Part shown: positions 28,986-56,668 of the stretch, piece after piece | How the letters are laid out: every line of letters starts with the position of its first letter | Position numbering within the stretch: the first letter of the stretch is position 1 | Assembly: GCA_965223405.1 (NCBI GenBank) | Contig: CBDCWO010000006.1 | Location: forward strand, 2,904,364 to 2,968,363 | Length of the DNA stretch: 64,000 bases | Source: Saprospiraceae bacterium | GTDB lineage: Bacteria; Bacteroidota; Bacteroidia; Chitinophagales; Saprospiraceae | Reading direction: 5' to 3' | Translations under genes and position numbers: made by a program | The notes under the pieces: model-generated | Seen by the model: the letters and a program-made list of their open reading frames with translations, nothing else | What the model was told of the DNA's origin: nothing | Database searches by the model: none

Positions 28986-29941
28986 TTAATTAACCCAAGT
29001 TGCGAACTATAGATTGATAGACCTAAAAAAGGTGTAAGCTAACACAAAAAGGAATATTTTGATCAAAAAGCCTTGGGGCGTGACTGCATGGATTTTAGCA
29101 GGCATCATTTGAGCTATTTCACTAAAAGTGGTTTCAATACGTTTTCTTTTATTTTCTATTAAATAATCTGTATAGGGTTTATGTTGTCTTTTGAGGTTGG
29201 ATTTTCTTTGTACCAGTAAATGAATTTGGTCGCATTCCATCAACAAATCTTCGTACTGATAATCGTTGTAAATAGCATCTGCATACAAGGTGCTATCAAC
29301 AGGTAAATCCAAATTCATAGATTTAAAAGCGGTTATGTCGGAGAAAGAACCAGCCGCAATATAATAGTCCACTGGTATTCCATTTGCATCCACTACCAAT
29401 TGGACTTTAAAACCATAAAAATACTCCCTTTTAGAAACACATTTGCCACGATAAGCTTTGTTTTTCAATAACTTACAGTTTGGGATTCGAATGTTGTGAC
29501 ACACTTTAACCGGAAATGAATCAATGATGTATTCACTACTTATATTTAGATTTTTGATCCTTTGTCCAAGACCTCGAAATAGACTCCATAATAAAAATTC
29601 TAATCCATGAAGTCTTCTATTAAATCCGCTTTTATCAATAAATACAACTCCATGATGTGACCTCATATAACCTCTGGCTTTGACCATGTTGCATCCAAAA
29701 TATCTGGATGCTATAATTGCGGTTGTTAAAATTTCAGCATCAGTAGTTTTTCTTAATGATTCATCTTTTTTTCTTGAAATCTTGACAAAATCATCAATAA
29801 AGCAATAAATTGTAATTACATAATTTTCCATAATGGGTGTAGATTTTGGTGGGATGAGACCTCCTTAATTTACACCATTATGGATTCTTTAGCAATATGT
29901 ATTATCATTTATTTTAATACGTCGCAACTTGGGTTAATTAA
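28986..29941 (-). mobile_element. IS982-family insertion sequence, copy A (956 bp, ~20-bp terminal IRs TTAATTAACCCAAGTTGCGA)
   Basis: The left end is attaattaacccaagttgcga and the right end is tcgcaacttgggttaattaat. It is 100% identical over its whole length to copy B at 55712-56668. Confidence 0.85.
29007..29831 (-). CDS. IS982-family DDE transposase (copy A)
   Basis: 274 aa. The N-terminal ITIYCFIDDF motif and the size are typical of the IS982 family. It is identical to the ORF at 55733-56557. Confidence 0.85.
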   Translation of the reverse strand: MENYVITIYCFIDDFVKISRKKDESLRKTTDAEILTTAIIASRYFGCNMVKARGYMRSHHGVVFIDKSGFNRRLHGLEFLLWSLFRGLGQRIKNLNISSEYIIDSFPVKVCHNIRIPNCKLLKNKAYRGKCVSKREYFYGFKVQLVVDANGIPVDYYIAAGSFSDITAFKSMNLDLPVDSTLYADAIYNDYQYEDLLMECDQIHLLVQRKSNLKRQHKPYTDYLIENKRKRIETTFSEIAQMMPAKIHAVTPQGFLIKIFLFVLAYTFFRSINL

Positions 29942-30077
29942 TAATGTATTGCATTAACCGCAAATCGGCAAGATGAGTTATCTGGAAGCACATTTACAAT
30001 TTGATTTTATGACCAAGTTACTTTTTCAGGAAGCAGCAATAGATAAGGATTGATCTAATCTAAAAGAATATCATATT

Positions 30078-30112
30078 AAACAGCGTCCTGCAGAAGTGGG
30101 ACGCTTTTTTTT
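30078..30112 (+). terminator. rho-independent terminator-like hairpin right of IS copy A
   Basis: cagcgtcc-tgcagaagtg-ggacgctg stem followed by tttttttat. Confidence 0.4.
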
Positions 30113-30535
30113 ATGAAAATATTAAATAAAATATGCAGAAATAAAGTCAGATATAGGAATTGGAGGATTTTGCACAAATGGCAGTGGTACAACGAATTAC
30201 AAAATCCAGAGTATAACGTCTTATGGCGAATGGGAATTCCTATATCTAACCTTAGTCAAAAGCAATTGATTATCAGATATTTAGGTTGGAATAGATTTGG
30301 AAATGTAAATACAATTTATATACCTTTGCGAATCGAAATTAAATAGAAATGATAGGACTAAAATTTATTGGGAATAAGAACTGTGTAAGCCATGATCTAC
30401 ACCAGGATAATTATTTAGACGTATTATGCAAAGAGGCAAGAATGATGTAATCTCATCGATTATATAAGATACATTAAGGCATCTCTTTGCATCAAGGAGG
30501 TGCTTTTTTTATTTCTGCATTTCCCCATTTCAAAT

Positions 30536-30607
30536 AGTGTCGTAGTTCAGTGGTAGAACATCCGACTGTCTATCGGAAGGTCGCGAGTTCGATTCTCGTC
30601 GACACTG
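30536..30607 (+). tRNA. tRNA-Asp (anticodon GTC)
   Basis: Manual fold: 7-bp acceptor agtgtcg/cgacact, D-arm gttc-agtggta-gaac, anticodon stem tccga/tcgga with loop ctGTCta, and T-arm gcgag-ttcgatt-ctcgt. CCA is not encoded. Confidence 0.8.
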
Positions 30608-30685
30608 CATTTTTCTTTTGCGCTGATGATTATACCGGACTTTGTATCGGAATATGGAGATTCATTTTCGCTCACTTAATAACCC

Positions 30686-30759
30686 TGTCCTGTGTTGTAA
30701 TGGTAGCATTTGAGAATTTGGATCTCAGGGTAAAGGTTCGAATCCTTTCGGGATAGCCA
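30686..30759 (+). tRNA. tRNA-Gln (anticodon TTG) with an imperfect D-stem and CCA encoded
   Basis: The acceptor tgtcctg/cgggata has 2 G-U pairs. The anticodon stem is tgaga/tctca with loop atTTGga. The T-arm is aaagg-ttcgaat-ccttt. The discriminator is g, followed by cca. The D-stem has a 10-25 mismatch. Confidence 0.55.
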
Positions 30760-30973
30760 ATGATATTAAATTAACAATGCGACGGGTAACGACTCTTCGC
30801 ACTAAAATTGAAAAATCGATAAAGAAATAGTCACAGTCAAGTGACAGAAGAAGGTTTTTTGATAATGATTGAGATAGCACGATGCGGGTTTCTGTATAAC
30901 CCCATGTAACCAGGACAATAGTCATTAGGTTTGACGATCGAAGCATTATCAGGAATCCCAAACTCCAAGTGTC

Positions 30974-31069
30974 GTGGGTTCGATTCCCACTCATGCCGCT
31001 GGTGTGATAGTTCAGAAGGTTAGAACATTGGAATTTTTGATTGCGCAGGTTCGAATCCTGCCAGGCCTC
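30974..31069 (+). other. tRNA-like fragments: a 3' tRNA half (T-arm + acceptor 3' strand) immediately followed by a 5' tRNA half (acceptor 5' strand + D-arm) and a degenerate T-arm. Either a pseudo-tRNA or a rearranged tRNA.
   Basis: 30974-30998 is gtggg-ttcgatt-cccac + tcatgcc + g. 31001-31027 is ggtgtga-ta-gttc-agaaggtta-gaac-a. The 7-nt strands tcatgcc and ggtgtga are fully complementary (2 G-U), but in permuted order. A second T-arm gcagg-ttcgaat-cctgc at 31045-31061 lacks a matching acceptor. It is followed by the perfect 18-bp palindrome caggcctcatgaggcctg. Confidence 0.35.
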
Positions 31070-31448
31070 ATGAGGCCTGTGGCGGAATTGGTTGACGCGA
31101 TAGACTTAGGATCTATTAATCATTTCAACTGAGCTGATCCCTCGTAAAAGGATTACCACTTGAGGATTTGGTCTTTAGAATCGCACTGATTTAGGTTGGT
31201 CTATTCGGTAAAAAAGCTGAAAGACGCTACCATGAATTAGAAAATTAACTTTTGATAAGAGTGAAGTTGGATACCGTCTGATTGAGGCTCTACTCTGATA
31301 GCATACCTATATTTTCAATGAGAATATACATGTGCCGATCACAGTTTTACCGAAATCTGGCTTAAAGCTGCATCCATCGGCAGTTGATGATTCTAGGGAC
31401 CGGTTCTCTATTTCAAAATGGATTTTATAACTATTTAAATATTAAATC

Positions 31449-32552
31449 ATGAGACATGTTAGAATTGCAGTAAATGCGTATGAAAAAGCATTGGTTTTCA
31501 GAAATGGTGAACTTGTCAGGGTATTGGATAGTGGAAAATACTGGATAAGCCCGTGGGCAAAAGTCATGAAGTATGATATTACAGAGCTATTCTACCATGA
31601 AGTAGATCTCGATATATTGATGAAGTGCGAAGATTTGAATTCGAGATTGAATGTTGTGGAGGTAGCCGATCATGAAATAGTAATCCAATGCAGGCATAAT
31701 AACTTCAATCAGGTCCTGACTCCGGGTAGATATGCGTACTGGAAAGAGGGATTAGAGTATTCCTACGAGCGGGTGGATCTCAATGTCATCGAGGTAAGTG
31801 ATAAACTACCTCGTAAAATATTGCATAGACCAGAGGTCTTGAAATACTTGGATGTTCATACTGTTGAAAGCTATGAAAAAGGATTGTTGTTTGTCGATGG
31901 AGAATTGTACAAAAAATTGAATCCTGGTCTCTATTACTTTTGGAAGGGTGAACAAAACGCCATCTTGACCAAAGTGGATACTCGTAAGCTACAAGTTGAA
32001 GTGAGCGGTCAGGAGCTATTGACTCAAGATAAGGCGGCAATTCGGTTGAGTTTGTTTGCCAATTATCAGGTCATCGATATTATGAAGGCTTTGGCTGAGA
32101 GCAAAGACTATGCAAAACAGTTGTATGTAACTTTGCAGTTAGGCTTGAGAGAGTATATAGGTCAATTCACTTTGGATCAATTGCTACGTAATAAGTCTGC
32201 TATTGCGCCAAACATCATGGAGTATGTGGAAGAACGCGCTTCAGAACTTGGTGTCCAGCTGATAGATTGTGGTATCAGAGATATCATCTTACCTGGCGAT
32301 ATCAAAGAGATCATGAATCAAGTATTGGTAGCCGAGAAAAAAGCTCAGGCCAACACCATCATGAGAAGAGAAGAGACTGCGTCCACTCGAAGTTTGCTTA
32401 ACACAGCCAAACTGATGGAAGACAACGAAATGCTCTTCAAACTCAAAGAGATGGAATACATGGAGCGTATTGCAGATAAAATCGGTGAGATAACGGTCAA
32501 TGGCGGTATGCGTGTAGTTGATCAGTTGAGAGAGCTTGTAGGTAGCAAATGA
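31449..32552 (+). CDS. SPFH/band-7 (stomatin/prohibitin/HflK-C-like) domain protein with a duplicated N-terminal segment
   Basis: 367 aa. The C-terminal 200 aa match the SPFH pattern (QDKAAIRLSLFANYQVIDIMKAL..., coiled-coil tail). The N-terminus has an internal repeat (FRNGELVRVLDSGKYWISPW / FVDGELYKKLNPGLYYFWKG). Confidence 0.7.
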   Translation: MRHVRIAVNAYEKALVFRNGELVRVLDSGKYWISPWAKVMKYDITELFYHEVDLDILMKCEDLNSRLNVVEVADHEIVIQCRHNNFNQVLTPGRYAYWKEGLEYSYERVDLNVIEVSDKLPRKILHRPEVLKYLDVHTVESYEKGLLFVDGELYKKLNPGLYYFWKGEQNAILTKVDTRKLQVEVSGQELLTQDKAAIRLSLFANYQVIDIMKALAESKDYAKQLYVTLQLGLREYIGQFTLDQLLRNKSAIAPNIMEYVEERASELGVQLIDCGIRDIILPGDIKEIMNQVLVAEKKAQANTIMRREETASTRSLLNTAKLMEDNEMLFKLKEMEYMERIADKIGEITVNGGMRVVDQLRELVGSK

Positions 32553-32555
32553 TGA

Positions 32556-32596
32556 TTCCCCTCCTAGATAAATGTCGGAGGGGAATTTTTTTACCT
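32556..32596 (+). terminator. rho-independent terminator after the SPFH gene
   Basis: A stem ttcccctcc/ggaggggaa with a 12-nt loop, followed by ttttttta. Confidence 0.55.
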
Positions 32597-36950: not shown

Positions 36951-37697
36951 ATGACTTATACTGTAAAAATAAAGCAATTTGAAGGTCCATTTGATCTCCT
37001 TCTTTTCTTTATAGAAAGGGATGAATTGGATATCAACGACATTCCAATTTCCAAAATTACCGATGATTTTTTAGCCTACCTCAAAAAATTGGAATCAATG
37101 AATATCGATGTGGCCAGTGAATTTATCCTGGTAGCGGCAACATTGATGAAGATTAAAGCCCGGATGCTTATTCCCCGCAAACACATAGATGAACAGGGTA
37201 ATGAAATTGATCCCCGTGAGGAATTAGTTCAGAGGCTTTTGGAGTATAAAAAGTTTAAAAGTGTCCTGGATGACTTCCGCAGCCTTGAAGCAGCTCAAGC
37301 GATTAAAGTTCAGCGTGGGAACATTGTTCCGGAACTAAAGAAAATGGCAACCAAAGCTTTAGTAGATGTCGAATTGGAGTCGCTAAATCTTTTTAACCTG
37401 CTAAAAGCCTTTGAAGCAGTTATTGATCGTTACGAACATTCTGAAAAGGTTGTTCACCACATTGCGAGATATAACTACACCATTAAAGATCAACAAACTC
37501 AGATTTTCGCTATCCTGAATAAGTCAAAACGAGCAGATTTCACCGGATTGTTCTCTGCCTGTGAGAACAGAATCCACGCTATCGTGACCTTTCTGGCCCT
37601 ATTGGAACTGGTAAATCATCAAAAAATCAAAATAATCGGTGGTACTACAATTAACAGTTTTTGGATAGAGGAAAAGGAAAATGGAGTTCCGGATTGA
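36951..37697 (+). CDS. scpA: segregation and condensation protein A
   Basis: 248 aa. An F-EGPFDLLL-I-ERDELDI.DIPI..IT N-terminus is diagnostic of ScpA. Confidence 0.8.
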   Translation: MTYTVKIKQFEGPFDLLLFFIERDELDINDIPISKITDDFLAYLKKLESMNIDVASEFILVAATLMKIKARMLIPRKHIDEQGNEIDPREELVQRLLEYKKFKSVLDDFRSLEAAQAIKVQRGNIVPELKKMATKALVDVELESLNLFNLLKAFEAVIDRYEHSEKVVHHIARYNYTIKDQQTQIFAILNKSKRADFTGLFSACENRIHAIVTFLALLELVNHQKIKIIGGTTINSFWIEEKENGVPD

Positions 37698-37719: not shown

Positions 37720-38421
37720 TCAAATGTATCTTTCCCGCTTTTGTAAATTTATCAGAGCACCTAGGATAAAAACTACCGTTCCCACGCTTAAGAAAATCCG
37801 GCTTTTCCAAACGATTTGCTTCCAGGCCAGCTGACTGAATCCCCTGCGTGGGTCATAGGGATTTAAAAATACGTTCCAAAAAGTATCTTCCAGGAACTCA
37901 CTGAATATGGTCAATCCAACTCCGAGTATTACCATAACAACCGCCGTTGCATTACCATTTTTTATCCAGGTGGAAATCAAAAAAGCCAAACTACCCAGGA
38001 AGCAGATGGGAAACAACAATTGGATCGCTACTGAAACTGGATTTATTGGATACAACAACCAGGAACCAAGAGCAGCGAAAAGTATGAGTAAAATAAATAT
38101 TTGAGTAAATATCAGTACTAATCGAACCAGCCAAACTTTATAACGATAATCCGGAATACCAAAGTGGATTTCCAACATACGCGCATCCTCATCCCGTTGA
38201 ATCCCAAATACCACGGGATAAAAAATCAATAGAATGGCTGGAAAAAAAGTTAAAGAATAGATTGACCCAATATTGATTTCATCGTTTTCAAAAACACTTA
38301 TCACCATAAAAAATAGATAAAAAGCCAATGCGGCTACCAAAAACCAAAGAAAGCGTCCGGCAAAGATGACTTTCAAGTTATACTTGATCAAACTGCGGAT
38401 ATTTGTAATTGTATTGCGCAT
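37720..38421 (-). CDS. ABC-2-type permease-like integral membrane protein, translationally coupled (TAATG) to the upstream RND-ABC fusion gene
   Basis: 233 aa with 6 predicted TM helices. Its start codon overlaps the stop of the 38421-43112 gene by 1 nt. Confidence 0.5.
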   Translation of the reverse strand: MRNTITNIRSLIKYNLKVIFAGRFLWFLVAALAFYLFFMVISVFENDEINIGSIYSLTFFPAILLIFYPVVFGIQRDEDARMLEIHFGIPDYRYKVWLVRLVLIFTQIFILLILFAALGSWLLYPINPVSVAIQLLFPICFLGSLAFLISTWIKNGNATAVVMVILGVGLTIFSEFLEDTFWNVFLNPYDPRRGFSQLAWKQIVWKSRIFLSVGTVVFILGALINLQKRERYI

Positions 38422-41400
38422 TAGTTTTTAATATTCTTTAATAAACACAAATAGGCATCCTCCAAAACGGGATCAACGGAAATGGCCGATTCCTGGGGTT
38501 TATGTAGGGAAATACATCGGACCCGTATGTGATCACCTTCACGCAGGTGATTAACTACAACCTCTTCTGATTCAACCGTGGCAAAGTCCACTGCCGGGAT
38601 GATATATTCCCAAACCAGTCCTTGCGCCAGACCAAGCATATCCTGTGGTGAACCCTGGTATTTTACAGCACCATGATCCAACACGGCCAATTGATTGCAA
38701 GAACTGGCGATATCTTCGATGATATGAGTAGAAAACAGGACAATCCGATCACGGCTTAATTGTACCAGGAGGTTTCTGAAACGAATACGTTCGCGAGGAT
38801 CCAATCCGGCTGTCGGTTCATCGACGATTAATATTCGAGGCAAATGAAGTAATATTTGAGCGATACCAATACGTTGTTTCATTCCACCGGAAAAGGAACC
38901 GATTTTTTCATGTTTGCGATCCAACATATTTACAGAATCCAACACATAGAGTAATCGTTCCTCCCTTTTATTGCGGTCATGCAATCCTTTGAGGATGGCT
39001 TGATAATCAAGAAAAGCCCAGGCCGTCATATTGTCATAACTTCCAAATGCCTGAGGTAGATACCCAATTAATCCCTGAAGTTCTTCACGTTTCTCCTGCG
39101 TATCAATACCATTGATCCAGATCTTGCCATAACTTTGTTCGAAGATTCCAGAGATGATACGCATTAAAGTTGATTTCCCGGCTCCATTGGGTCCTAGCAG
39201 CCCATACATGCCGGTACCAATATTCAATGACACGGTATCAAGGGCCTTAAATGGGATTTTACGTCTACCAAGCAGTGGGATGCTGATAATCGAGCGATAA
39301 TAAAATCGTCTCAGCTTTCCCTTTATCCTTTCAACCTTTAGCTGTTTACGGTAGAAATATGCCGACGATTTATAAACAATCAATACCAAATACCAAACTA
39401 AACCCCAAAAAATGGTATATCCCCATTCCTCCCATTTCTGATTCATTTGAAAAAGTAATACCAGCGGACTGGCCCAAAATAGGAGTTCTCCCAAAATCAT
39501 TGGGATCCATTTCTTTTTATCAGAATAAACTAAATTAAAGGCTAACTTGAACGGTTGCCATATTCCCAATAATAGAAGATAAATGCCTATTCCAATCAGG
39601 AGTATCCAAAAGCCATCCTGCAAATAAGAAAATGCAAACCATCCTAAAAAGATTAGAAGAGGAATTTTCCAAATAAACTCACTTAACAATGCACCCCAGC
39701 GAATCTTACCTTCTTCGGATTGAAGAACAAAAGATGGTGTTTTGCTGTTTGACCACTCTCTTGAAAACCGACCGGGTCGATTGTAAATCTTTACCAGGTT
39801 TTGGACCTTAATGTATAATGCTTCATCGGTAGAGATCAGCCTGGTCTGAGCACGTTTTAGACTCGCTAAAATAAAATATGTAATAGCCGGAATCAGGAAG
39901 ACCAATAACAGGATATCCAGCAATTGCCATAGAAATGAAGTTACTCTGAAATAGATCAGTAACCCTCCACAGACGAAAAGGATGACATTCAATATTTTTA
40001 TCCATAGAGATAAACCTCTAAACCAATTAATGGTATTTTCTAACCCCAAATAGACTGTGGGGATCACGATTAAAGTAAGTACTGTTCCCAAAGCCAAACC
40101 TCCAATCACAGTTATTGCAAAAGGTGCTCCAATTACACTGACATATTCTGCTGTACCCAACGCCAAGGGAAACATAGCGGCAATAGTAGTAATAGCTGTA
40201 ATCAGGATTGGGCGTAACCTATGAAGTCCAGCAGTGATTAATGCCCGGATTTTACGATAGCCCTTTCTCCTCAAAGCATTGACATAATCAATCATGATGA
40301 TGCCATTGTTGACAATAACACCCAAAAGGATTAAAAATCCGGTGAGGGTATTGGCGTTGAATAATCCATTTCCGGTGATTGTTAAGGCTAATAGTGACCC
40401 TGTAGCGGCTAGTGGCACGGAAAACATCAATACAAAAGGTGCTGACAAAGATTCAAACACTGAAGCCAGGATAATGAAAATAAGGAGAATGGCTGCTCCT
40501 GCCAGTGCTTTAAAATCTTTGATCTGATCCTGGGCTGCTTCCATTTCGATAGCAATTCCCGGAGGGACCGGGTAGTTTGAGATTAGCAACTTTATGCTTT
40601 CCTGGTGCGCTTCCAGAAGTTCTTTTGACTGATTGGCTTCTTGAGAGCGAGTGTAAGAAATCTGTATTTGTTTCTGTTGGTTGATACGCCTGATATCATC
40701 ATAACTTTCACCTGTACGGATAGCAGATAAGGTGGACATTTCATGAGCTCCACCTTCTTGATCAATAACTTCCAACTTTTTGAGATCTGACATGGTTTTG
40801 GGTTGGAATCCTGATTGAAGGTCTTCATTATCGCGTATGATAATATTGTATTCATCGTCAACATATCTGAACTTGGTGTCCGCAGGTGCCTCTTGTTCGA
40901 AATTTCTTAATGCGATAGCAATATTTTCCGGAGTGACTTTATTTCTGGCCAGGGTTAAGGGGTCAAAGGCCAGCAATACTTCAGGTCGGTTGCCACGAGT
41001 GCTAAGATTAGCATTCCGGGTATCGTCCAGGTTTTGGATATAATATAGAAGATCCTGGGCAACTCTCTGCAACAATCCATAGTCCTCTCCTTTCACGACA
41101 ATTTTTTCCTGATTTTCACCAAAACCCATTAGTTGTCCCAGAGCATCCAATCCACCTAGGCCTTGAGAACCCTCACCGGAATTACTGGAAGCAAAACTAA
41201 TTCGAGCACCTCCGATGCGGCGGGTGAGATCTTCAATTTCCGATTTGATATCATTATAGGATCGATTATCTATTTTTTCAAAATCTTCTTTAAGCTTAAT
41301 ATTTACGACAGCATCTTCCTCCTGGATACGACTGCTGATATCTTGTTTCTCGGCGAGACCCTCTAGTTTAGATTCAATTTCGAGGACAATCTTATCTGTT

Positions 41401-43151: not shown

Positions 43152-43431
43152 TTGTCCATTTTCTATATGTACTTTCATTCAAAATTCCACCCCCTGCCCC
43201 CTCAAGGGTCCCTCAAGGGGGACAAAATTCTTCCATTACCATTGTGATTGCTATTGTCATTGCTATTGCCATTTGCTTATCCAATCTCCATTCATACTTT
43301 CATTCAAAATTCCACATCACATTTCCATTTGTCATCAACTTTTTCAGAAATACGGATACAATTACTATTGTCATTTATTTCAAGCAGATTTTCATTTTCA
43401 TTTCTTTATCTACTCAACATTGAATTCAATT
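43113..43431. repeat. repeat-rich intra-operon spacer: (CATTGT/CATTGC)n hexamer tracts and two diverged ~125-bp tandem units each ending in tactttcattcaaaattccac, plus the GC hairpin-like ccccctcaagggtccctcaaggggg
   Basis: Direct inspection: cattgtcattgtcattgtcatttgtccat at 43131-43160 and ccattgtgattgctattgtcattgctattgccatttgc at 43238-43275. The motif tactttcattcaaaattccac occurs at 43171 and 43296. Confidence 0.6.
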
Positions 43432-46551: not shown

Positions 46552-47603
46552 CTCAATATTTTCACTTTGGACTTATTGCGTAGTGTTTCAAATCCCTTAA
46601 CAACCAGACGTTCGTTTTCTTCTAAACCACTGATTACTTCGATCTGATCTTCATTTTCGAGTCCGGTTGTAATCATACGTTCGAAGGCGGTGTTTTCCTG
46701 AACTACAAATACCCTTTTACCTCTCTGATCAGAAATAATCACTTCCTTGGGGATGGTGATGATGTCCTCTTTTTGATCGACTTTGATAAGTATTTTGACA
46801 AACATCCCGGGACGTATCAACAGTTTTGGATTGCTGAAGCGGACTCTGCCTAAATAGGTACGGGTATTGACGTCGATGGCTGGTGAAAGTTCAGTAATAG
46901 TTCCCGGTATGGTATCATTTGGTAAGCTGTAATTGGTGATTTGCACTTTCTGTCCTGGTTTTACTTCCATCATGGTATTTTCCGGCAGACTTACATCCAC
47001 ATACATGCGAGAATAATTCATGACTGTGACCAATGGATTGCCTTGTTGAATTATACTATTTTGCGTGTAGTGTGGAAGCTTCACTATGACGCCAGAAACC
47101 GGTATTTCAACCCGCATCTTCTCCAATCGTATCTGGGCATTTTCAAGGTCTTTCTTGGCATTTGTCAGCTGCAATTCCGAATTTCGTAATTCTCGCAAAG
47201 TAACCCCACCTTTGTCGAAAACAGATTTTTGTTTTTCATATTCCTGTTGTGCCAATTCAAGATTCATTTTCACTGACTCCAATCCAATGTTGTTTACATA
47301 TTCTTTATCTTCAATTTCGACAAAAGCTTGTCCGGCTTTGACCCAATCGCCTAATTTATATGGACGTTTTCGCGTTGGATGATTTTTTAGCTTGTATTTG
47401 CCATTAATTTGGGCCGTCAGTTCAATCTCTTTATCAGCCAGCGCATTTCCAGTAGCAATGGTATGCCGGGTTAAAGAACCGCTTTTTATTTCTACAACAG
47501 ATACAGGAGCGGCAATATCTATATTGGGGCTTTCCTCTTCGGTCTGGTTACAGGCGAGAAGGATTAGCAAAGCATAAATGAGGATATAATATTGTTTTTT
47601 CAC
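46548..47603 (-). CDS. efflux RND transporter periplasmic adaptor subunit (membrane fusion protein, HlyD/AcrA family)
   Basis: 351 aa. It has a lipoprotein-like signal (LLILLACNQ), a coiled-coil hairpin, a lipoyl/beta-barrel pattern, and a C-terminal MP domain. Confidence 0.85.
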   Translation of the reverse strand: MKKQYYILIYALLILLACNQTEEESPNIDIAAPVSVVEIKSGSLTRHTIATGNALADKEIELTAQINGKYKLKNHPTRKRPYKLGDWVKAGQAFVEIEDKEYVNNIGLESVKMNLELAQQEYEKQKSVFDKGGVTLRELRNSELQLTNAKKDLENAQIRLEKMRVEIPVSGVIVKLPHYTQNSIIQQGNPLVTVMNYSRMYVDVSLPENTMMEVKPGQKVQITNYSLPNDTIPGTITELSPAIDVNTRTYLGRVRFSNPKLLIRPGMFVKILIKVDQKEDIITIPKEVIISDQRGKRVFVVQENTAFERMITTGLENEDQIEVISGLEENERLVVKGFETLRNKSKVKILR

Positions 47604-47637
47604 AAGTTTAGTTTTAATTATTTATTTGTTGATACAA

Positions 47638-49149
47638 CTAGTTATCCGACGGAAGCGCTATTGACACGGGTTCATTTTTTTCCCAATCGAAGAGTGTGAG
47701 TATTTTTAAATCCAGTAATTGTGTTTTATAATTAATTAAGGCACGAGCGTAGTCAATTTTCTTGGTAGATAGCTGATTCTGAAATTGATTAAGATCAATT
47801 CCTGATAAATCACCATTGATATACCTTTCAAGATTGATTTCATACGTTCTTTGCGCATTTTCTACACTTTTTTTGGCAATTTCGATACGAGGCATTTGAG
47901 TTTGAATATTACGGTAGGAACGGCGGATATCCATTCGTATCTGTTTGCGATCTTCAGCCAGGTCCAACCGCTGTGATCGCATGGATACTTCCTGGGCTCG
48001 AATCCGGGCTTCTCGTTCACCCCAATCGAAAATTGGTATGTTAAATGAAATTCCGATACTGGGGTTATTGGTAGGCATATTATAAATCTTGCCAAACTGC
48101 TCATCGTCCCCAAATATCCCTAGGGTCAACTGAAGATCTGCTCTAAACTCATTTTGGGCTTTAGTTCTTTCCAGTTCGAAAAATGATTTTTCAATGTTAA
48201 TTTGTCTTTGTTGGAGTTCCATGCGGGATTTCAAAGCATATTCGATGGCTTTTTCCAAATCCACGACTACAGGTATTGCTTCTAAATCAGTAGATAGCTG
48301 AATCTGCTGATCAAGGTTCATTCCAATTTCTCTTTTGAATGATTCTTCGGCATTCGTCAAAGCCAGTTCGCTATCCTGAAGTGACAGCTGAGCATTGGCA
48401 AAATTGAGTTCGGCCTGGTACAACTCCTCCTGTGCCAGCAATCCTGCTTCAACTTTGTTTTTCACGATCTCAAAATTTTTAGAAGTATTCTCCAGTTCAT
48501 CTTTGGCAATATCCAGGTTCAATTGAGCAAGATAGACATCAAAAAACTGACTGGTAATCGTTTTCTCCAGTGTTAATCGCTGAATAGCGTATTCCAAGCT
48601 GGCATTCTGATAGTTTAATTCCAATTCCTCAAGTTGCATTTTTCTTCGATTGAAAGTAAAGATCGGTTGGTTAAAGGCCAGATATAAATTATTGTAAAAC
48701 GCTTTATTGGAATTCTCTCCGAAACCCACAATTTCAGATTTGTTATTGCGCCAGCTTAAATTGTTGATTAAAGCAATAGTGCCATCGGTTTTCAAGATGG
48801 GTTGTTCTACCCGGAAAGATCCGGAAGAAAATACTTCCTTATTAGTGAACCACTGAGAAAACTGATTATCAAAACTCCGGCGGTTACTGAAGTTGAATGG
48901 ATCCAGAGTTAGGGAAAACCGTGATTTCAAGGATGCCCTTTCAGCTTCCAAGCTGAATTGATATTGTTCGATATTAAAAAGAGAACGCTGAATTGAAGGA
49001 CTTCCTTGTTCCGCTATTTCCATGGCCGACTCCAGAGTCAGTAGAGTCTGGGTAGATCCCGGTTGTGCAAGCAAAAATACAAACAACAAGAATCCGTGGG
49101 ATACAACTGAAGGTGCAATTCTAAATATTTTTAAGTATTTCATAATCAT
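47638..49149 (-). CDS. TolC-family outer membrane efflux protein
   Basis: 503 aa with a signal peptide and two repeated OEP halves with the characteristic coiled-coil-rich pattern (LTLESAMEIAEQGSPSIQRS...). Confidence 0.8.
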   Translation of the reverse strand: MIMKYLKIFRIAPSVVSHGFLLFVFLLAQPGSTQTLLTLESAMEIAEQGSPSIQRSLFNIEQYQFSLEAERASLKSRFSLTLDPFNFSNRRSFDNQFSQWFTNKEVFSSGSFRVEQPILKTDGTIALINNLSWRNNKSEIVGFGENSNKAFYNNLYLAFNQPIFTFNRRKMQLEELELNYQNASLEYAIQRLTLEKTITSQFFDVYLAQLNLDIAKDELENTSKNFEIVKNKVEAGLLAQEELYQAELNFANAQLSLQDSELALTNAEESFKREIGMNLDQQIQLSTDLEAIPVVVDLEKAIEYALKSRMELQQRQINIEKSFFELERTKAQNEFRADLQLTLGIFGDDEQFGKIYNMPTNNPSIGISFNIPIFDWGEREARIRAQEVSMRSQRLDLAEDRKQIRMDIRRSYRNIQTQMPRIEIAKKSVENAQRTYEINLERYINGDLSGIDLNQFQNQLSTKKIDYARALINYKTQLLDLKILTLFDWEKNEPVSIALPSDN

Positions 49150-49159
49150 AGATTTTGAT

Positions 49160-52100
49160 CTAATCCATTTTTACCAATTTAATTGCATCGGCAAAAATTG
49201 CTCTGAGTCTGGATTCATTACTTAATGTAATAGTAGCTGTATCTGCTGTAAAAACATAATCGCCAAGGGAGTTCCAACCACCCGGAGATTGGTGGGATAA
49301 TTCGATACTTGGACGGTCTATTCCATTCGCATGGGGTATCACAAATTGATAATTTCCTTTTTGACCGCGATTCCAATTGAATGAATCGTCTTTATACACA
49401 TGATAAAAGACATCATATCTTCCCGGTTCGGATATCGGAATATTCCATTTGGCTTCCTTGGAGCCATCCCCGGCTTTGATGTAGAAGGCGGATCTAATGA
49501 ATTCTCCAAAAAAGCGATCATTGGTCGTTGCCGTCCAATTGAGAGGTGCACGCCATACCATAGTACCCTGATACTTGAAATCATCGTCCACTTCCGCTTT
49601 CAACCATTTGCGAAGCCGGCTTACTTCTTCAAAATGGGTAAATTCGAAACTGGGATTTTCATTGTCAACAATGATCTCATTATCATTTACGATCACCAGG
49701 GGGTTAGCAACGATTTCCTGTTTTTCTACAGCATTGGTAACCTTAGTTTTGTTAATGACTTCAAAGGAATAGTCAATCTGGTTGGGTAGATTTCCCGAAG
49801 TAAGTGTATTAAAATGGATACCGGCCGGTTCAGTCAGTGATAAATAAAATGCTTCTTTAGTTTGCCCTGGCTCGAGATATATCAATTTTTCCTGGGTATC
49901 TCCTGGGCGAAGTTTGGATTTCACTACACCTCCCGTTGTCCCCAAGTTTGAAATCTTAAAGCGAACCCGGTTCATTTCTCGATTCCCCACCAACACCTTC
50001 TCGGCCACAGGAGTGCTAAATAGATATTGAGCCATATCGGTTTCGTTAAACCATTTGGTCATATGTTGGGATAAATCCACTCCAAATTCGGCGTAAATGT
50101 GTTTTTGGAACTCTGCAAATTTTAGATTTTTGAAACGATATTCTTGCAACAACTGGATTACATATTCTCGAAACCGGTCTGTTTTTGCAATGGCTTGAAT
50201 CATTGAAAAGAGCATCTCTCCCTTTAATTCTATAACATTGTCTATCAAAGATTGGTGTTCCGATAGATTTAGAATTTGGGCAAAGGATTTTTCCTGTAAA
50301 ACCATATTGGCCAATTCATTTTGGGTACTGCCGCTTGTCTGTCGCATCCAATCCCTGCCGCGATTGTTTTCGATTCGTAAATAAGACTCAAAGACACGAT
50401 TTAGAACTGGCCAATCTTTTGAATCCAGATTGTTACACATTTCATATAATTGACCAAATTGATAGTACGGATTTAAAGTTTCTTCTACCTGCGCCCTACC
50501 GGCATTAAAATTGGTGTTGATGTTTTTGAATCGGTAAAATTCTTCTAAGAATACATGGAGTACCTCGATTTGCAATTCCTCAGCAGTTTTATTTCGGCGG
50601 CGGTTCCACCTTTTGCGACGCTTGACGGATCCATTAAAATCCAAATTCCTGGTGTACAAGCCTTTTTCCGGTATCAATACTTGTCCGGGTTGGATTGTCT
50701 GATGAACTGAGGTCCAATTGCGATCATAGGTTTTGAATTGACCAGGAACCTCGATGATTGTAAATTTATCAAATGGGTATTTTAGCCCGGATTGCCGTTC
50801 AAAATCTCTTAACCTTTCTTCAATAATTGAAGGGAGGGTATCTCTTATATCCTGAAAGGCATTATTAAAATAGTCATGGCCATCGATGTAATAGAGTGAA
50901 AACTTCATGCTATCGGTATCCAAGGTGGTCCGTTTGTAATTTCCTATTGCTACTGACAGTTGAGGTAAACCATAGTCACGTTCAAAAAAATAAGTGTTTT
51001 CTTCCAGTTGTGTAGGATGACCTTGTGAAATCGGAATCAATCCGGGCAGAGTTTTTATGGTCAATTGGTAATTGACAAAATCCTTTCGATACCAGAATGG
51101 TGATGCATTACTATATCCGACTCCTGATTGGGGATACCATTGCGCTTCAGGTGTTAACAGTAGATATTGCGGATGGATAAATGCGTATCTACTCCCAATA
51201 TCAAATAAATAATTCTTCTTTTTTTCAGATTTAAGTTTTTCATCAATATCCAAATAGCAGGCATTTTCGTCAATTGTACCCTGATATTCTATGCGCAATT
51301 CGATTGAAGTTTCAATAGGCAAAATAGTATCAAATCGAACTATCAACAATTGTAATTTTCGCTCATATTCCAATTCCTTTGCTATTGATGAAACAGATAT
51401 GACTTTTAGTCCCGGATTTAAAGTAAAAACAAATTCGCTAGCCGCTGTCTCCGTATAACCTTTTATTCTTGAAACGGCCTTGTAATCGGACTCATTTTGT
51501 TCCAATCTAATTTCATGATCTTCAATATCAATTTGGGCATGCGAGATATAGCTATTATTCAGTGCAATCATTTCTGCCGATAAGACTTTGTGTTCCTGAT
51601 AATTCTTTAAATGCTGGTGGCCGAGGTAAAGAGCAGATCCAATTGCCAGGACACCCAACATAAAAGATGAGATATTTATTAATCTGGATTGGGGTAAACG
51701 ATTTGAAATGAGGATAGAAAAAAACATGAAACCTAAACCCAAACAAGTATACATTACCCGCAGACTCAATATCGTAGGCCAGTCTCCAAAACCGACTAAT
51801 TCCGAATGAAATAAAGGGAGATAAAAGGCCATATAATCAAAGAGGTAATTGTGGGATCCGCGTAAATAAATTAAGCTGGAAAGGATATAACCCAATAGCA
51901 GAACAAAAGTCAATGCCTGATTACGGATAACTCCCATTAAAAAGATAGACAATCCAACAATAAATGTTAACGTAGGAACAGAGATTAACAGTGGATAGTA
52001 CAAATAAGCCTGCCAATCGACGTAGGTATCCTTGGCTAGTAAATTAAAAACCAGCGCCATCAACAATGCCACCACGTTGATCAATAGAAATATGGACAAG

Positions 52101-52435
52101 ATGCTCCAAACTTTACCAAACAGATATGTGGCATTACTCATGGACCGAACATAAAAGACCTCGGTGGTGTCCTGTTTTCGGTCACGTTTTATAAATTCTG
52201 AAGACAAGAATACAGCAATAATTGCCTGTGCGACATTTAGGATAAATAGATTGGCATAAGGAAGATTTGCAGGGATTGCCCGATACACCCATTCCATATC
52301 ACCCACCTCAGAAATTTCACCCATATTGAATGCAAATAGTACAAATAGTGAGAGCACCGAGAAAATTCTAAAAAACCAACTCCGCATTAGAATTTTGCGC
52401 TCGTATTTTGCTATCGTTCTAAAAGTAAAGATCAT
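49160..52435 (-). CDS. ABC-2-family permease (6 TM, aa 1-300) fused to a ~790-aa extracytoplasmic domain of unassigned fold (possibly M1-aminopeptidase-like, but no HExxH)
   Basis: 1091 aa. The N-terminal polytopic domain is like GldF/ABC-2 permeases. It lies directly downstream of an ABC ATPase gene. The large soluble C-terminal region has no zinc motif. Confidence 0.6.
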   Translation of the reverse strand: MIFTFRTIAKYERKILMRSWFFRIFSVLSLFVLFAFNMGEISEVGDMEWVYRAIPANLPYANLFILNVAQAIIAVFLSSEFIKRDRKQDTTEVFYVRSMSNATYLFGKVWSILSIFLLINVVALLMALVFNLLAKDTYVDWQAYLYYPLLISVPTLTFIVGLSIFLMGVIRNQALTFVLLLGYILSSLIYLRGSHNYLFDYMAFYLPLFHSELVGFGDWPTILSLRVMYTCLGLGFMFFSILISNRLPQSRLINISSFMLGVLAIGSALYLGHQHLKNYQEHKVLSAEMIALNNSYISHAQIDIEDHEIRLEQNESDYKAVSRIKGYTETAASEFVFTLNPGLKVISVSSIAKELEYERKLQLLIVRFDTILPIETSIELRIEYQGTIDENACYLDIDEKLKSEKKKNYLFDIGSRYAFIHPQYLLLTPEAQWYPQSGVGYSNASPFWYRKDFVNYQLTIKTLPGLIPISQGHPTQLEENTYFFERDYGLPQLSVAIGNYKRTTLDTDSMKFSLYYIDGHDYFNNAFQDIRDTLPSIIEERLRDFERQSGLKYPFDKFTIIEVPGQFKTYDRNWTSVHQTIQPGQVLIPEKGLYTRNLDFNGSVKRRKRWNRRRNKTAEELQIEVLHVFLEEFYRFKNINTNFNAGRAQVEETLNPYYQFGQLYEMCNNLDSKDWPVLNRVFESYLRIENNRGRDWMRQTSGSTQNELANMVLQEKSFAQILNLSEHQSLIDNVIELKGEMLFSMIQAIAKTDRFREYVIQLLQEYRFKNLKFAEFQKHIYAEFGVDLSQHMTKWFNETDMAQYLFSTPVAEKVLVGNREMNRVRFKISNLGTTGGVVKSKLRPGDTQEKLIYLEPGQTKEAFYLSLTEPAGIHFNTLTSGNLPNQIDYSFEVINKTKVTNAVEKQEIVANPLVIVNDNEIIVDNENPSFEFTHFEEVSRLRKWLKAEVDDDFKYQGTMVWRAPLNWTATTNDRFFGEFIRSAFYIKAGDGSKEAKWNIPISEPGRYDVFYHVYKDDSFNWNRGQKGNYQFVIPHANGIDRPSIELSHQSPGGWNSLGDYVFTADTATITLSNESRLRAIFADAIKLVKMD

Positions 52436-52455
52436 TACTATTCAAAATTCATTTA

Positions 52456-53361
52456 CTAACTGGTCAATATCGATTTGGAATTATTTTTAATGGTATGTTC
52501 AACAAAGTAGACATAGGCATGCTCTAAATTTGGGGGTATTGCTTCCGCATTATAACCACTTACATCATCACCGACCACAATGACCTTCCAACCATCCTTC
52601 ATCATCATGGTGGATACCACTTGAAATTTTTGATTAACGTCCATGTATTCCTGCTCCGATACATGAATAGACCATACATGGTTTTGGGCCTGTTGAATAA
52701 GTTTTTCCGGAGACCCTGAAAACGCTACCTTTCCCTTATTTAAAAGAGCCATATGCTCACAAGTGCTGGAAATATCCGCCACAATATGCGTCGAAAGGAT
52801 AATAATGACATCTTGTGAACTCAAGTGGGCTAACAGATTTCGAAATCGAATACGCTCTTCGGGATCCAGTCCGGTAGTAGGTTCATCTACTACGATTATT
52901 TTTGGATTATTAATTAAAGCTTGAGCGATACCAAGTCGTCGTTTCATACCACCTGATAACTTACCTGCTTTACGGCTTCTCACATCAAAAAGACCAACTT
53001 CTTCCAGCAAATGGTCTACGGCCTGAGTTCGTTCACGTTTGGTTTTCATGCCGGCCAGTCGAGCTGCATAATCCAAAAACTCATGAGTTTTCAAGTTGGA
53101 GAAAAAGCTAAAATCCTGAGGTAAGTACCCTAGCATGCTACGTACGTAATCTCGGTTTTCTGCAACATCTTTTCCGTTTACTAACACTTTGCCACTACTG
53201 GGTTTCATCAAAGTCACCAAAATTCGCATTAAACTGGATTTACCCGCACCATTTGGTCCAAGCAACCCGAACATACCTTCCTTAATTTCAAGATTAATAT
53301 CATGGAGGGCATGATTTCCGTTTGGATAAACTTTGTTCAAGCCTTGTATTGAGATATTCAT
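52456..53361 (-). CDS. ABC transporter ATP-binding protein (ABC-2/GldA-like), paralogous to the NBD fused to the RND gene
   Basis: 301 aa. It has Walker A GPNGAGKSS, signature LSGGMKRR, Walker B IIVVDEPTTGLD and H-loop LSTHIV. It shares long identical stretches with the 38421-43112 C-terminal domain (LDPEERIRFRNLL vs LDPRERIRFRNLL). Confidence 0.9.
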   Translation of the reverse strand: MNISIQGLNKVYPNGNHALHDINLEIKEGMFGLLGPNGAGKSSLMRILVTLMKPSSGKVLVNGKDVAENRDYVRSMLGYLPQDFSFFSNLKTHEFLDYAARLAGMKTKRERTQAVDHLLEEVGLFDVRSRKAGKLSGGMKRRLGIAQALINNPKIIVVDEPTTGLDPEERIRFRNLLAHLSSQDVIIILSTHIVADISSTCEHMALLNKGKVAFSGSPEKLIQQAQNHVWSIHVSEQEYMDVNQKFQVVSTMMMKDGWKVIVVGDDVSGYNAEAIPPNLEHAYVYFVEHTIKNNSKSILTS

Positions 53362-53551: not shown

Positions 53552-54331
53552 TCAATTTTTTCTAATACCCAATAGATTGACCACACAGTTTTCCATATTA
53601 CCTACGGTAAACGCAAATTCCTGCTTTATTTTAGTGCCATCGGAGTAGCTGGCGGGACTCCAATTGGGCATGCAACGAATTGCGTTTAATAATAAGGTAT
53701 CGATTTTTTCATCCTTAAAAGGCCAAAAAATATGCGCATTAACGACTTGTCCTAGATTATCAATGGTAAATTTTACGGTAGCTAAGTCGAGATTCTGAAA
53801 GGTACTATCCGGAATTTGACTTAAGGCGTTTTCCTTCAGATAGTGTCTCAGCTGTTGTACACCACCGGGATATTTTGCATCACTTTGGGGAAGTACGGCC
53901 AGTTTAAAATCAATGACTTTGATTTCATTATGACTTAAAGTGTTATCAGGAATGTATTGAACCACAACGGCTATATCAGTTCCTGAGTCGGCCACGGTGA
54001 TCAGATCTTTTTGTTTCTGACTGAGGGTATCGTTTTTACTCCTGGCCGTTTTGGTCTGGCCTCGATAGAGTGTTATTATCTCTACCGAAATATATTCTTT
54101 GATCCAGGAAGATTGATATTTCTCATTCAGATCAATTAGGGTTTGTGCTGTTTTGAGTTCATCCTTTGTAATCGAAAAATACGGATAGATCGGATTGATT
54201 TCAAAATGAAGTTCATTGCTAAATCGCTCTTGGGATATACTAAAATGAGGGAAAGAGAGCCACACAAATATCACAGTTACAAAGAGATGTTTGATCAATT
54301 TAGCAACAAATTCAGGCATATCGAGGTTCAA
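53552..54331 (-). CDS. TonB C-terminal-domain-like membrane-anchored protein. The first gene of the efflux operon. (The start is TTG at 54331 or ATG at 54319.)
   Basis: 259 aa with an N-terminal TM anchor. The C-terminal ~90 aa (AKYPGGVQQLRHYL...VKFTIDNLGQVVNAHI...) resemble the TonB_C fold. Confidence 0.5.
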   Translation of the reverse strand: MNLDMPEFVAKLIKHLFVTVIFVWLSFPHFSISQERFSNELHFEINPIYPYFSITKDELKTAQTLIDLNEKYQSSWIKEYISVEIITLYRGQTKTARSKNDTLSQKQKDLITVADSGTDIAVVVQYIPDNTLSHNEIKVIDFKLAVLPQSDAKYPGGVQQLRHYLKENALSQIPDSTFQNLDLATVKFTIDNLGQVVNAHIFWPFKDEKIDTLLLNAIRCMPNWSPASYSDGTKIKQEFAFTVGNMENCVVNLLGIRKN

Positions 54332-54515
54332 GGTTTATAACTATCAGTAATTAAGCAAAGTTAATCTGGAGCCTATATTTATCAAATTGTAAAGTGTAAA
54401 TTAGTGTAAAATGAACGTAAACCACTTCCAAAAAGGGTAATAATCCAATACTTTTGTATCATAGTCAATACGAATGTCGTTCTTTAACCAATACCAATTT
54501 TGACCAAATTTTAGT

Positions 54516-55502
54516 ATGACTGCATCAAAAAATATATTTCATTCAGGTATTTTTCTTGTGAACTTGGTTATAGAAAAACAAATTAAATCAGCATACCAGA
54601 AACTTGGATTATTGGTGGTCTTATTCATAATTCCCTTCGCAGCAATTAGCTCATCGGATAAACTGGTTGATGAAAAACGTACCATGGTAGCCATGAGAAC
54701 CATCGGGCATCAGGTATTACTTAGTATCGGAGATAGCGACTCTCGGATCATGCCTATTGAAAAGACAGATGGATATTTTAAAATTCCTTTTGGAGTTGAA
54801 TTTGGATTTGATCCAGGAGATATTGTTTCAATCATTGACAGTATAATGAGAGATACAAAATTTGCATCCCATGTATTAGTCGAAGTAGGACAATGTGACT
54901 CTAATGAGATCGTACATAGTTTTGAAATTAAAAATGAAGGAAACTCCAGTAAGATTGCTTGTATCGGGAGAAAATTGCCAAAGGACTGTTATAGTCTTTT
55001 TGTTACTATTATAGACAGCAGTGGATCTGGAAATCAGAGTCCTGATAAATTATCATCTAGTGGTTTGTCCATAATTTCATCCAAGTTCAAAGAATCAAAA
55101 CTTTTTCAATCTGCATTCTTGTTGACCCCTTTGATTCTACTACTGGGTTTTTTAGGTTATTTTATCAATAAGAAAAATGAGGTTAGCAAAGATCCAAATC
55201 TGATACTAATCGGTTCTTCCGAGTTTGATACGCGGAATATGTCCCTTTCATATCAAGATAAAAGGGTTGAGTTGTCATACAAAGAAGCACAACTACTTTC
55301 CTTACTTCACACTTCTGCAAATACACCTATCGCACGCGAAGTGTTGCTCCAAAGGGTTTGGGGTGATGAAGGTGGTTATGTAGGAAGGACGCTAGATGTC
55401 TTTATTTCCAAATTACGTAAAAAACTGGAGGCAGATGCCAGTGTGAAAATTGTAAATATCAGAGGGGTTGGTTATAAACTGGTCATGAAGGCTACGAAGT
55501 AA
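54516..55502 (+). CDS. membrane-anchored one-component regulator with a C-terminal OmpR/PhoB-type winged-helix DNA-binding domain (trans_reg_C), divergent from the efflux operon
   Basis: 328 aa. It has an N-terminal signal/TM, a predicted extracytoplasmic domain, a TM at ~aa 195-215 and a C-terminal wHTH (LSYKEAQLLSLL...REVLLQRVWGDEGGYVGRTLDVFISKLRKKLE...IRGVGYKL). Confidence 0.65.
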   Translation: MTASKNIFHSGIFLVNLVIEKQIKSAYQKLGLLVVLFIIPFAAISSSDKLVDEKRTMVAMRTIGHQVLLSIGDSDSRIMPIEKTDGYFKIPFGVEFGFDPGDIVSIIDSIMRDTKFASHVLVEVGQCDSNEIVHSFEIKNEGNSSKIACIGRKLPKDCYSLFVTIIDSSGSGNQSPDKLSSSGLSIISSKFKESKLFQSAFLLTPLILLLGFLGYFINKKNEVSKDPNLILIGSSEFDTRNMSLSYQDKRVELSYKEAQLLSLLHTSANTPIAREVLLQRVWGDEGGYVGRTLDVFISKLRKKLEADASVKIVNIRGVGYKLVMKATK

Positions 55503-55711
55503 AGCCATTGGCTCTTGTTTTTTCTTTTACAGATGGAAGTTCAGATCTATCGATTCACTTTAATCTATTTGACAACAGAATAAGTGAGACAGTAAATTGG
55601 ATTTATTTCATTTTGCATACAGCAGTTTAAAATGTGAACCATTTCGCCAACTCCCTTGGAATATTTTTCGTCTTTTAATTAGATTAACAGATAATAATCG
55701 AACTCAGGTTA

Positions 55712-56668
55712 TTAATTAACCCAAGTTGCGAACTATAGATTGATAGACCTAAAAAAGGTGTAAGCTAACACAAAAAGGAATATTTTGATCAAAAAGCCTT
55801 GGGGCGTGACTGCATGGATTTTAGCAGGCATCATTTGAGCTATTTCACTAAAAGTGGTTTCAATACGTTTTCTTTTATTTTCTATTAAATAATCTGTATA
55901 GGGTTTATGTTGTCTTTTGAGGTTGGATTTTCTTTGTACCAGTAAATGAATTTGGTCGCATTCCATCAACAAATCTTCGTACTGATAATCGTTGTAAATA
56001 GCATCTGCATACAAGGTGCTATCAACAGGTAAATCCAAATTCATAGATTTAAAAGCGGTTATGTCGGAGAAAGAACCAGCCGCAATATAATAGTCCACTG
56101 GTATTCCATTTGCATCCACTACCAATTGGACTTTAAAACCATAAAAATACTCCCTTTTAGAAACACATTTGCCACGATAAGCTTTGTTTTTCAATAACTT
56201 ACAGTTTGGGATTCGAATGTTGTGACACACTTTAACCGGAAATGAATCAATGATGTATTCACTACTTATATTTAGATTTTTGATCCTTTGTCCAAGACCT
56301 CGAAATAGACTCCATAATAAAAATTCTAATCCATGAAGTCTTCTATTAAATCCGCTTTTATCAATAAATACAACTCCATGATGTGACCTCATATAACCTC
56401 TGGCTTTGACCATGTTGCATCCAAAATATCTGGATGCTATAATTGCGGTTGTTAAAATTTCAGCATCAGTAGTTTTTCTTAATGATTCATCTTTTTTTCT
56501 TGAAATCTTGACAAAATCATCAATAAAGCAATAAATTGTAATTACATAATTTTCCATAATGGGTGTAGATTTTGGTGGGATGAGACCTCCTTAATTTACA
56601 CCATTATGGATTCTTTAGCAATATGTATTATCATTTATTTTAATACGTCGCAACTTGGGTTAATTAAT
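55712..56668 (-). mobile_element. IS982-family insertion sequence, copy B (identical to copy A, same orientation)
   Basis: It has the same 20-bp IRs and is 100% identical internally to 28986-29941. Confidence 0.85.
55733..56557 (-). CDS. IS982-family DDE transposase (copy B)
   Basis: 274 aa, identical to the 29007-29831 product. Confidence 0.85.
   Translation of the reverse strand: MENYVITIYCFIDDFVKISRKKDESLRKTTDAEILTTAIIASRYFGCNMVKARGYMRSHHGVVFIDKSGFNRRLHGLEFLLWSLFRGLGQRIKNLNISSEYIIDSFPVKVCHNIRIPNCKLLKNKAYRGKCVSKREYFYGFKVQLVVDANGIPVDYYIAAGSFSDITAFKSMNLDLPVDSTLYADAIYNDYQYEDLLMECDQIHLLVQRKSNLKRQHKPYTDYLIENKRKRIETTFSEIAQMMPAKIHAVTPQGFLIKIFLFVLAYTFFRSINL

Follow-up and report, generated by a model that had tools for sequence, protein, structure and literature searches.

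Insertion sequences (ISs) of the IS982 family have a mean length of ~1 kb, ends that by convention read AC...GT, terminal inverted repeats (IRs) with the consensus AC(N)6T(N)5TT and direct repeats of 2–10 bp (Fayad, Kallassy Awad and Mahillon 2020, PMC7335449). We analyzed two copies of one such element in a 64-kb stretch of the genome of a Saprospiraceae bacterium (contig CBDCWO010000006.1), referred to below as the window. A repeat search followed by base-by-base extension delimited an exact direct repeat of 958 bp with 0 mismatches, whose two copies enclose 25,768 bp (Table 1). An earlier note on this DNA had described two identical, directly oriented IS982-family copies bracketing ~25.8 kb. 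Our results bear this out, with the left start corrected by a single base to 28985 from 28986. We interpret the pair as, most likely, two independent and recent simple insertions of one active IS982-family IS into resident intergenic DNA.

Each copy holds one 274-aa open reading frame (ORF) on the minus strand, so that the two are in direct orientation. The encoded transposase scored 193.9 bits against the NCBIfam model NF033520 'IS982 family transposase' (cutoff 130; model positions 1–241 of 243) and also matched Pfam DDE_Tnp_1_3 (PF13612; 72.3 bits, cutoff 27) and DDE_Tnp_1 (PF01609), the DDE domains being covered across almost their whole length. In a collection of 5.8 billion proteins, the highest identity was 87% for a fragment and 68% for full-length proteins. 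The proteins of the source genome, a single contig of 7,167,583 bp, are singletons in this collection. Judged by these matches, the IS is a new element within the known IS982 family. Two identical copies suggest that it is probably active, and their identity fits the recent transposition proposed previously. Both are intergenic; no ORF is broken and nothing is truncated at the junctions. Neither solo ends nor remnants of the IS were found elsewhere within the window, and the two 328-aa ORFs upstream of the copies showed no paralogy with each other.

The element resembles described IS982 members in its length (942 bp) and its single DDE transposase ORF passing the family model. Its terminal IRs begin with 5'-AC, and its direct repeat, whether taken as TAATTA (6 bp) or AATT (4 bp), lies within the range of the family. 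Its ends (ACCCAAGTTGCGA) match each other at 13 of 13 IR positions and contain the AC and the T at position 9. Positions 15–16 read CT/GT rather than TT, and the full consensus, used as a regular expression, fails on these ends. Agreement is seen within a Bacteroidota subgroup of the family (Pontibacter, Aureispira, Microscilla and Saprospiraceae metagenome-assembled genomes), where the pair's end A-ACCCAAGTTGCG compares with the consensus A-ACTCAAGTTGCG. This subgroup is uncharacterized and annotated only as 'IS982 family transposase'. A new, probably active member adds to genome annotation in a poorly studied Bacteroidota lineage.

Like the composite transposons Tn10, Tn5 and Tn9, the pair consists of two identical ISs flanking a gene block with an efflux system. 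It differs from them in that nothing points to past movement of the unit, and one end is a simple insertion into conserved resident sequence. In addition, the 25.8-kb cargo is compositionally native and includes ScpA, and the inner and outer duplications are indistinguishable. Likeness to tRNA-associated genomic islands is confined to the position of the tRNA genes close to one edge of the block; the block has no integrase, no direct repeat of a tRNA 3' end and no compositional shift.

Element ends and target duplications

The ends of the element were placed by homology. A genome scan with the transposase yielded 79 related loci at 37–61% amino acid identity (Pontibacter, Saprospiraceae, Cytophagales and others). 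Both ends were recognizable in 44 elements, with AAC...GTT termini (AACTCAAGTTGCG...CGCAACTTGAGTT); a 4-bp duplication abuts these ends in 29 of the 44 and reads AATT in 10 of those 29. The closest relatives with flanks (L082 and L083, 67–68% amino acid identity) have the termini AATTCAAGTTGCGACGTATTAAAA and AACTCAAGTTGCGATGTATTAAAA and AATT duplications. Their IS termini lie at AAT/AACTCAAGTTGCGA, and their outer flanks are unrelated. A wider set including these two and others comprised 33 elements with a 4-bp duplication (AATT in 13), and in 33/33 the duplication is preceded by T and followed by A. Read from these flanks, the target of this IS982 subgroup is T[AWWT]A, a strict palindrome, equivalent to a 6-bp repeat TAWWTA if the ends are taken as AC...GT. 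The family review (PMC7335449) does not mention this target; in a text search of it, 'palindrom' and 'AT-rich' were absent, and 'specificity' came up only in connection with a protease.

Both copies in the window have the context ATTAATT-IS-AATTAAT, and both insertion sites reconstruct to one 10-bp palindrome, ATTAATTAAT, whose halves lie at 28985–28994 and 29933–29942 for copy 1 and at 55711–55720 and 56659–56668 for copy 2. The outermost 7–8 bp at each end of the 958-bp repeat are thus most likely target DNA rather than IS. Because the ends of the relatives fix the IS boundaries, both copies can be seen to carry intact TAATTA duplications. These had been overlooked, as the boundaries were set too far out. 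Their supposed absence at the outer ends had been held against a single composite event, an argument that no longer applies: the outer TAATTA repeats do match, but so do the inner ones, and the comparison is uninformative. Since all four junctions are alike, duplications cannot separate two simple insertions from one composite event. More generally, palindromic target duplications can hide within an apparent 'extended inverted repeat', making tests of composite transposition based on duplications uninformative.

On the interpretation that we favor, one IS982-family IS of 942 bp would have inserted twice, separately, in AT-rich intergenic sites. Each insertion would have used a palindromic T-AWWT-A target, here ATTAATTAAT, and made its own TAATTA (or AATT) duplication. 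The 25.8 kb between the copies would be ordinary resident DNA, bracketed incidentally, and the empty sites would read CTCAATAATTAATTAATAATGTATT and CAGGTTATTAATTAATTATCGTGC.

We also considered guidance of insertion by IR-like motifs near the sites, such as CGCAACT to the left of copy 1, and rejected it as chance. The flanks of 47 elements gave 4 near matches against 11 in threefold control windows, which is no enrichment, and the motif at copy 1 is ancestral, being already present in the IS-free relative L084.

The copy-1 site in relatives and the bracketed block

Relatives of the left junction were reached through homologues of the slipin gene (31449–32552) in loci L084 (77% identity), L081 (76%) and L085 (74%). 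In L084 and L081 the sequences that flank copy 1 in the window on its left and right run together without an intervening IS. To the left is a conserved promoter-like box containing TTTCTAnnTTCGCAnCTCAATAA, which we take to resemble the Bacteroidetes -7 promoter element; the consensus of that element is TAnnTTTG. To the right is a conserved non-coding unit of ~170 nt. A single instance of the box was found in the window, and across 172 loci its one other occurrence was in L084, at the syntenic place. Alignment of the 31 nt to the left of copy 1 with L084 gave 26 identities (score 21, against a null maximum of 15 in 258 control windows), and the left sequence scores 15 against L081 (empirical p ~0.001). 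The unit aligns to 135–304 of L084 and 7394–7570 of L081, and box and unit together to 114–304 and ~7360–7570, respectively.

At the insertion point L084 reads ACTAAAA, seven A/T-rich bases where the window reconstructs to ATTAATTAAT, which supports a chromosomal origin of the ATTAATTAAT bases. Box and unit are 16 nt apart in L084 and 14 nt apart in L081, compared with 19 nt predicted by the 942-bp model of the element and 9 nt by the 958-bp model. On this comparison copy 1 represents a simple insertion that split an already existing resident unit, which is incompatible with arrival of the block as a composite transposon bounded by copy 1. The earlier note had named an IS-free gene order in related genomes as a finding that would refute its reading; IS-free sequence was found at the copy-1 site in L084 and L081, the junction that this comparison covers.

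The unit itself matched no Rfam family, whether the gathering or the E-value threshold was applied. We regard it as a candidate small RNA; in L081 it lies directly downstream of RtcB. Positioned between box and unit, copy 1 may uncouple the unit from its predicted promoter.

The block carries, in order, the small RNA-like unit, tRNA-Asp, tRNA-Gln, a YrlA-like RNA, slipin, MarR, SDR, FMN reductase and ScpA, followed by an RND-ABC fusion, RND, MFP, OMP, an ABC-2/M1-like protein, an ABC ATPase and a winged helix-turn-helix (wHTH) regulator. It additionally encodes a thioredoxin-like protein and DUF2024. The whole efflux locus does lie within it, as had been stated, whereas the 'tRNA cluster' reduces to two tRNA genes. 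ScpA, a housekeeping protein, was assigned by Pfam; NCBIfam ScpA models gave E = 1e-54 on this gene, yet below their curated cutoffs. No integrase, recombinase or relaxase was annotated among the block ORFs by Pfam or NCBIfam, and a repeat search of the window found no direct repeat of the tRNA 3' ends.

Composition likewise gave no sign of a foreign block. A check of GC and k-mer content had been suggested in case the block differed from its flanks; no difference emerged. GC is 0.392 in the block, between the values of the two flanks (0.399 and 0.383), and over 4-kb chunks the tetranucleotide centroid distance was unexceptional (permutation p = 0.27; rank 4 among 13 contiguous partitions). 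Core genes lie in the flanks, including RNase R and succinate dehydrogenase (SdhCAB) on the left. Upstream of slipin, L084 has tRNA-Asp, Glu, Gln and His, L081 has tRNA-His only, and further relatives have other tRNAs at the same position. The tRNA genes are part of a resident, conserved tRNA / YrlA-like RNA / slipin module, not an island landmark. None of the hallmarks of a genomic island was present, be it an integrase or recombinase, a tRNA 3' end used as insertion site and marked by a repeat, or atypical composition. The view of the block as an island or composite unit with tRNA landmarks is not supported, given the IS-free copy-1 site in relatives, the tRNAs of L084, the native composition, the presence of ScpA and the lack of mobility genes.

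Alternative histories of the pair

Several observations weigh against two independent insertions. With four alike junctions, the duplications leave room for a composite event or a recombinant copy. Judged from the target spectrum of the relatives, a second insertion would hit the same 10-mer ATTAATTAAT with a chance of only ~1%, and the AT..AT flanks recur in 0 of the 32 other TAATTA sites of the window. The shared 10-mer may reflect an extended target preference of this IS, or chance; alternatively, something else may link the two copies. Continuity on the left spans only ~30–50 nt before synteny with the relatives ends, and around the right junction relatives keep only the divergent gene pair 53552–54331 / 54516–55502. 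The copy count of the IS, moreover, covers the 64-kb window.

It is unlikely that at least one copy is a recombinant with an IS elsewhere in the 7.17-Mb genome, with the right junction or the block translocated, inverted or duplicated. Intact TAATTA repeats would be no proof of simple insertion if the IS always uses ATTAATTAAT-like sites, and none of the relatives examined preserves the gene order surrounding the block. Poor synteny is, however, expected at 57–78% protein identity, hence no evidence of IS-mediated rearrangement. The ancestral state of the left junction and the intergenic, untruncated positions of both copies also speak against recombination.

A further alternative concerns the boundaries only, namely that all 958 bp are mobile, with 21-bp IRs (ATTAATTAACCCAAGTTGCGA) and no target duplication. 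Copy identity does run 7–8 bp past the homology-defined ends as a perfect IR, and chance sharing of these extra bases would be ~1% on the target spectrum of the relatives. Against this, ~45 relatives, including the two closest, end in A-AC...GT-T with variable flanks and clear duplications. An AATT duplication with invariant T/A flanks also makes 5 of the 7 extra bases an IR automatically. Finally, the IS-free orthologous site in L084 has A/T-rich bases where this model predicts none. The ends of the relatives and the orthologous site led us to reject the 958-bp element, which we consider improbable.

We think it very doubtful that the pair is a nascent functional composite transposon that arose in place when an IS recognizing the 10-bp ATTAATTAAT inserted twice. 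Were this so, a 27.7-kb unit could excise or transpose, spreading the RND-ABC fusion efflux locus and the YrlA-like RNA / slipin module.

Arrival of the whole IS-block-IS arrangement as a composite transposon or island, together with its tRNA genes and efflux locus, is highly improbable. The same IS does flank the cargo twice, in identical and directly oriented copies; the outer ends share TAATTA once the boundaries are corrected, and an efflux locus is a typical transposon payload. The inner ends, however, also share TAATTA. An empty site joining the outer flanks (CTCAATAATTAATTAATTATCGTGC) was not seen on the left, where L084 and L081 join outer-left to inner-left sequence as one contiguous conserved unit. 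Upstream of slipin, L084 too has a cluster of tRNAs, block and flanks have the same composition, and the block encodes ScpA and assorted metabolic genes with no mobility genes. The efflux locus was linked to the regulator in 0 of 80 metagenome regulator loci, and in this set the IS-block-IS unit was not found in other contexts.

An assembly or polishing artefact, whether in the perfect identity or in the second copy itself, is the least credible account: consensus polishing can homogenize repeats, here within a single 7.17-Mb contig, but the copies differ in their unique flanks on both sides, each keeps an intact duplication of its own and sits at a plausible intergenic position, and long reads trivially span a 1-kb repeat.

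Two simple insertions accordingly remain our preferred reading. That the pair can delete, duplicate or mobilize the segment, as proposed earlier, holds as a matter of principle. At present the pair would be no more than a latent substrate, either for deletion or duplication through RecA or for composite transposition, with no sign that any of these has occurred. Were the block lost by deletion, ScpA and two tRNA genes would go with it, a loss that selection would probably oppose. The IS pair so understood is ordinary, and of little importance beyond genome annotation.

Other features of the window

Table 1. Positions of the IS pair, its junctions and further features of the window
Feature	Position	Strand	Basis or remark
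Third IS982-family element, 1,032 bp, AC...GT ends, 12-bp IR	7052–8083	+	IS982-family transposase
Conserved promoter-like box TTTCTATCTTCGCAACTCAATAA, just outside copy 1	28963–28985	+	In relatives directly adjoins unit 29943–30112
Left copy of exact 958-bp direct repeat (IS and shared target bases)	28985–29942		100% identical to 55711–56668
Left direct repeat of copy 1, TAATTA	28987–28992		Target consensus of relatives T[AWWT]A, 33/33
IS982-family IS copy 1, 942 bp, AC...GT ends, 13-bp perfect terminal IRs (ACCCAAGTTGCGA)	28993–29934	-	Homology with ~45 related elements
Alternative parse of copy 1	28992–29935		Core duplication AATT at 28988–28991
Transposase gene copy 1, 274 aa	29007–29831	-	NF033520, PF13612, PF01609
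Right direct repeat of copy 1, TAATTA	29935–29940		
Conserved ~170-nt non-coding unit, just inside copy 1	29943–30112	+	Intrinsic terminator 30082–30105 (terminator scan)
Bracketed segment, 25,768 bp, native chromosome	29943–55710		Pfam, NCBIfam, composition
tRNA-Asp(GTC)	30536–30608	+	ARAGORN, Rfam
tRNA-Gln(TTG)	30686–30759	+	ARAGORN, Rfam
ScpA (segregation/condensation protein A)	36951–37697	+	PF02616, 131.6 bits
RND/ABC efflux locus	38421–53361		Pfam, NCBIfam
RND-ABC fusion, 1,563 aa	38421–43112	-	RND permease (ACR_tran) residues 4–1022, ~270-aa linker, ABC ATPase 1292–1435
Uncharacterized ~250-aa protein, divergent partner of regulator	53552–54331	-	
wHTH (Trans_reg_C) regulator	54516–55502	+	Right edge of block
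Right copy of exact 958-bp direct repeat	55711–56668		
Left direct repeat of copy 2, TAATTA	55713–55718		
IS982-family IS copy 2, 942 bp	55719–56660	-	Identical to copy 1
Transposase gene copy 2, 274 aa	55733–56557	-	
Right direct repeat of copy 2, TAATTA	56661–56666		

The right-hand neighbours are, in order, the regulator, a small lipoprotein-like ORF (from 56673) and an MR_MLE gene (from 57626). Relatives of the regulator comprised L080 and L086, at 57–59% identity over the full length, and 80 metagenome loci at 34–61% over the best segment. Downstream of the regulator stop codon nothing aligned, by blastn or tblastx, in L080 or the 80 metagenome loci. The divergent pair formed by the regulator and its partner is widely conserved across Bacteroidota (L080, L086 and ~17 other loci). 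None of the RND, adaptor, outer-membrane or ABC-2/M1-like genes of the window lay beside the regulator in the loci examined; only weak matches (28–30%) to the stand-alone ABC ATPase were seen, in L125 and L164. This distribution suggests that the regulator is probably not dedicated to the efflux locus.

The small ORF (56673–57023, plus strand) encodes a signal peptide (...FISVFVAC) and begins 8–14 nt past the right duplication of copy 2. It has one in-frame TGA, beyond which a 59-aa ORF continues in frame. This could be a pseudogene or else a gene with its 5' region displaced by the IS.

Within the efflux locus, the C-terminal 563 residues of the RND-ABC fusion (1001–1563) align colinearly with members of at least 30 clusters (50% identity; ~1,550–1,600 aa). 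On these alignments the fusion is a real, recurrent architecture; no paper on such fusions was found under 'RND-ABC' terms. The stand-alone ABC ATPase (52456–53361) is a 70%-identical DNA paralogue of the RND-fused ATPase domain (38755–38894 versus 52820–52959). Beside it (49160–53361 for both, minus strand) is a 1,091-aa protein whose matches (ABC-2 membrane, M1-peptidase-like, Golvesin_C) are weak.

The third, different IS982-like element with an intact duplication, also described earlier, was confirmed. A 7-bp duplication, TGGTTTA, lies on either side of it (7045–7051 and 8084–8090), and its transposase is only 28% identical to that of the pair. Two tandem 276-bp units resembling miniature inverted-repeat transposable elements, 98% identical and with terminal IRs ACTAGTGAGTCTACTCTGAAAA ... 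TTTTCAGAGTAGACTCACTAGT, occupy 6489–7040 and stop 4 bp short of this duplication. Two short direct repeats, 79–88% identical (21549–21780 and 25804–26029), link the region upstream of an astacin/ricin-lectin protease gene with the interior of an Omp28-like gene (24566–26464).

A conserved structured non-coding RNA of ~600 nt (~30840–31440, plus strand; core 30974–31143) lies between tRNA-Gln and slipin. Its core contains two tandem tRNA-mimic modules, each with a T-arm, a closed acceptor-like hairpin and a D-arm. It matches the Rfam family YrlA (Y RNA-like, RF02553) with 42.6 bits (E = 4.6e-8), below the gathering score of 69. Described YrlA RNAs adjoin Ro60 orthologues (PMC4201824), whereas no Ro60/TROVE gene was seen nearby here; in relatives, a ~170-aa TPR-like protein and RtcB, an RNA ligase, are encoded in the vicinity. 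In Anabaena, TrcR co-represses a slipin gene, rtcB and a tRNA operon (PMC10272220). The YrlA-like RNA is found directly upstream of slipin in seven Bacteroidota loci. In a seven-sequence alignment, a hand-drawn structure had 95.8% of cells paired compared with at most 50% in slid controls, and 16 of 38 pairs showed changes on both sides; none of 500 shuffles reached the observed values.

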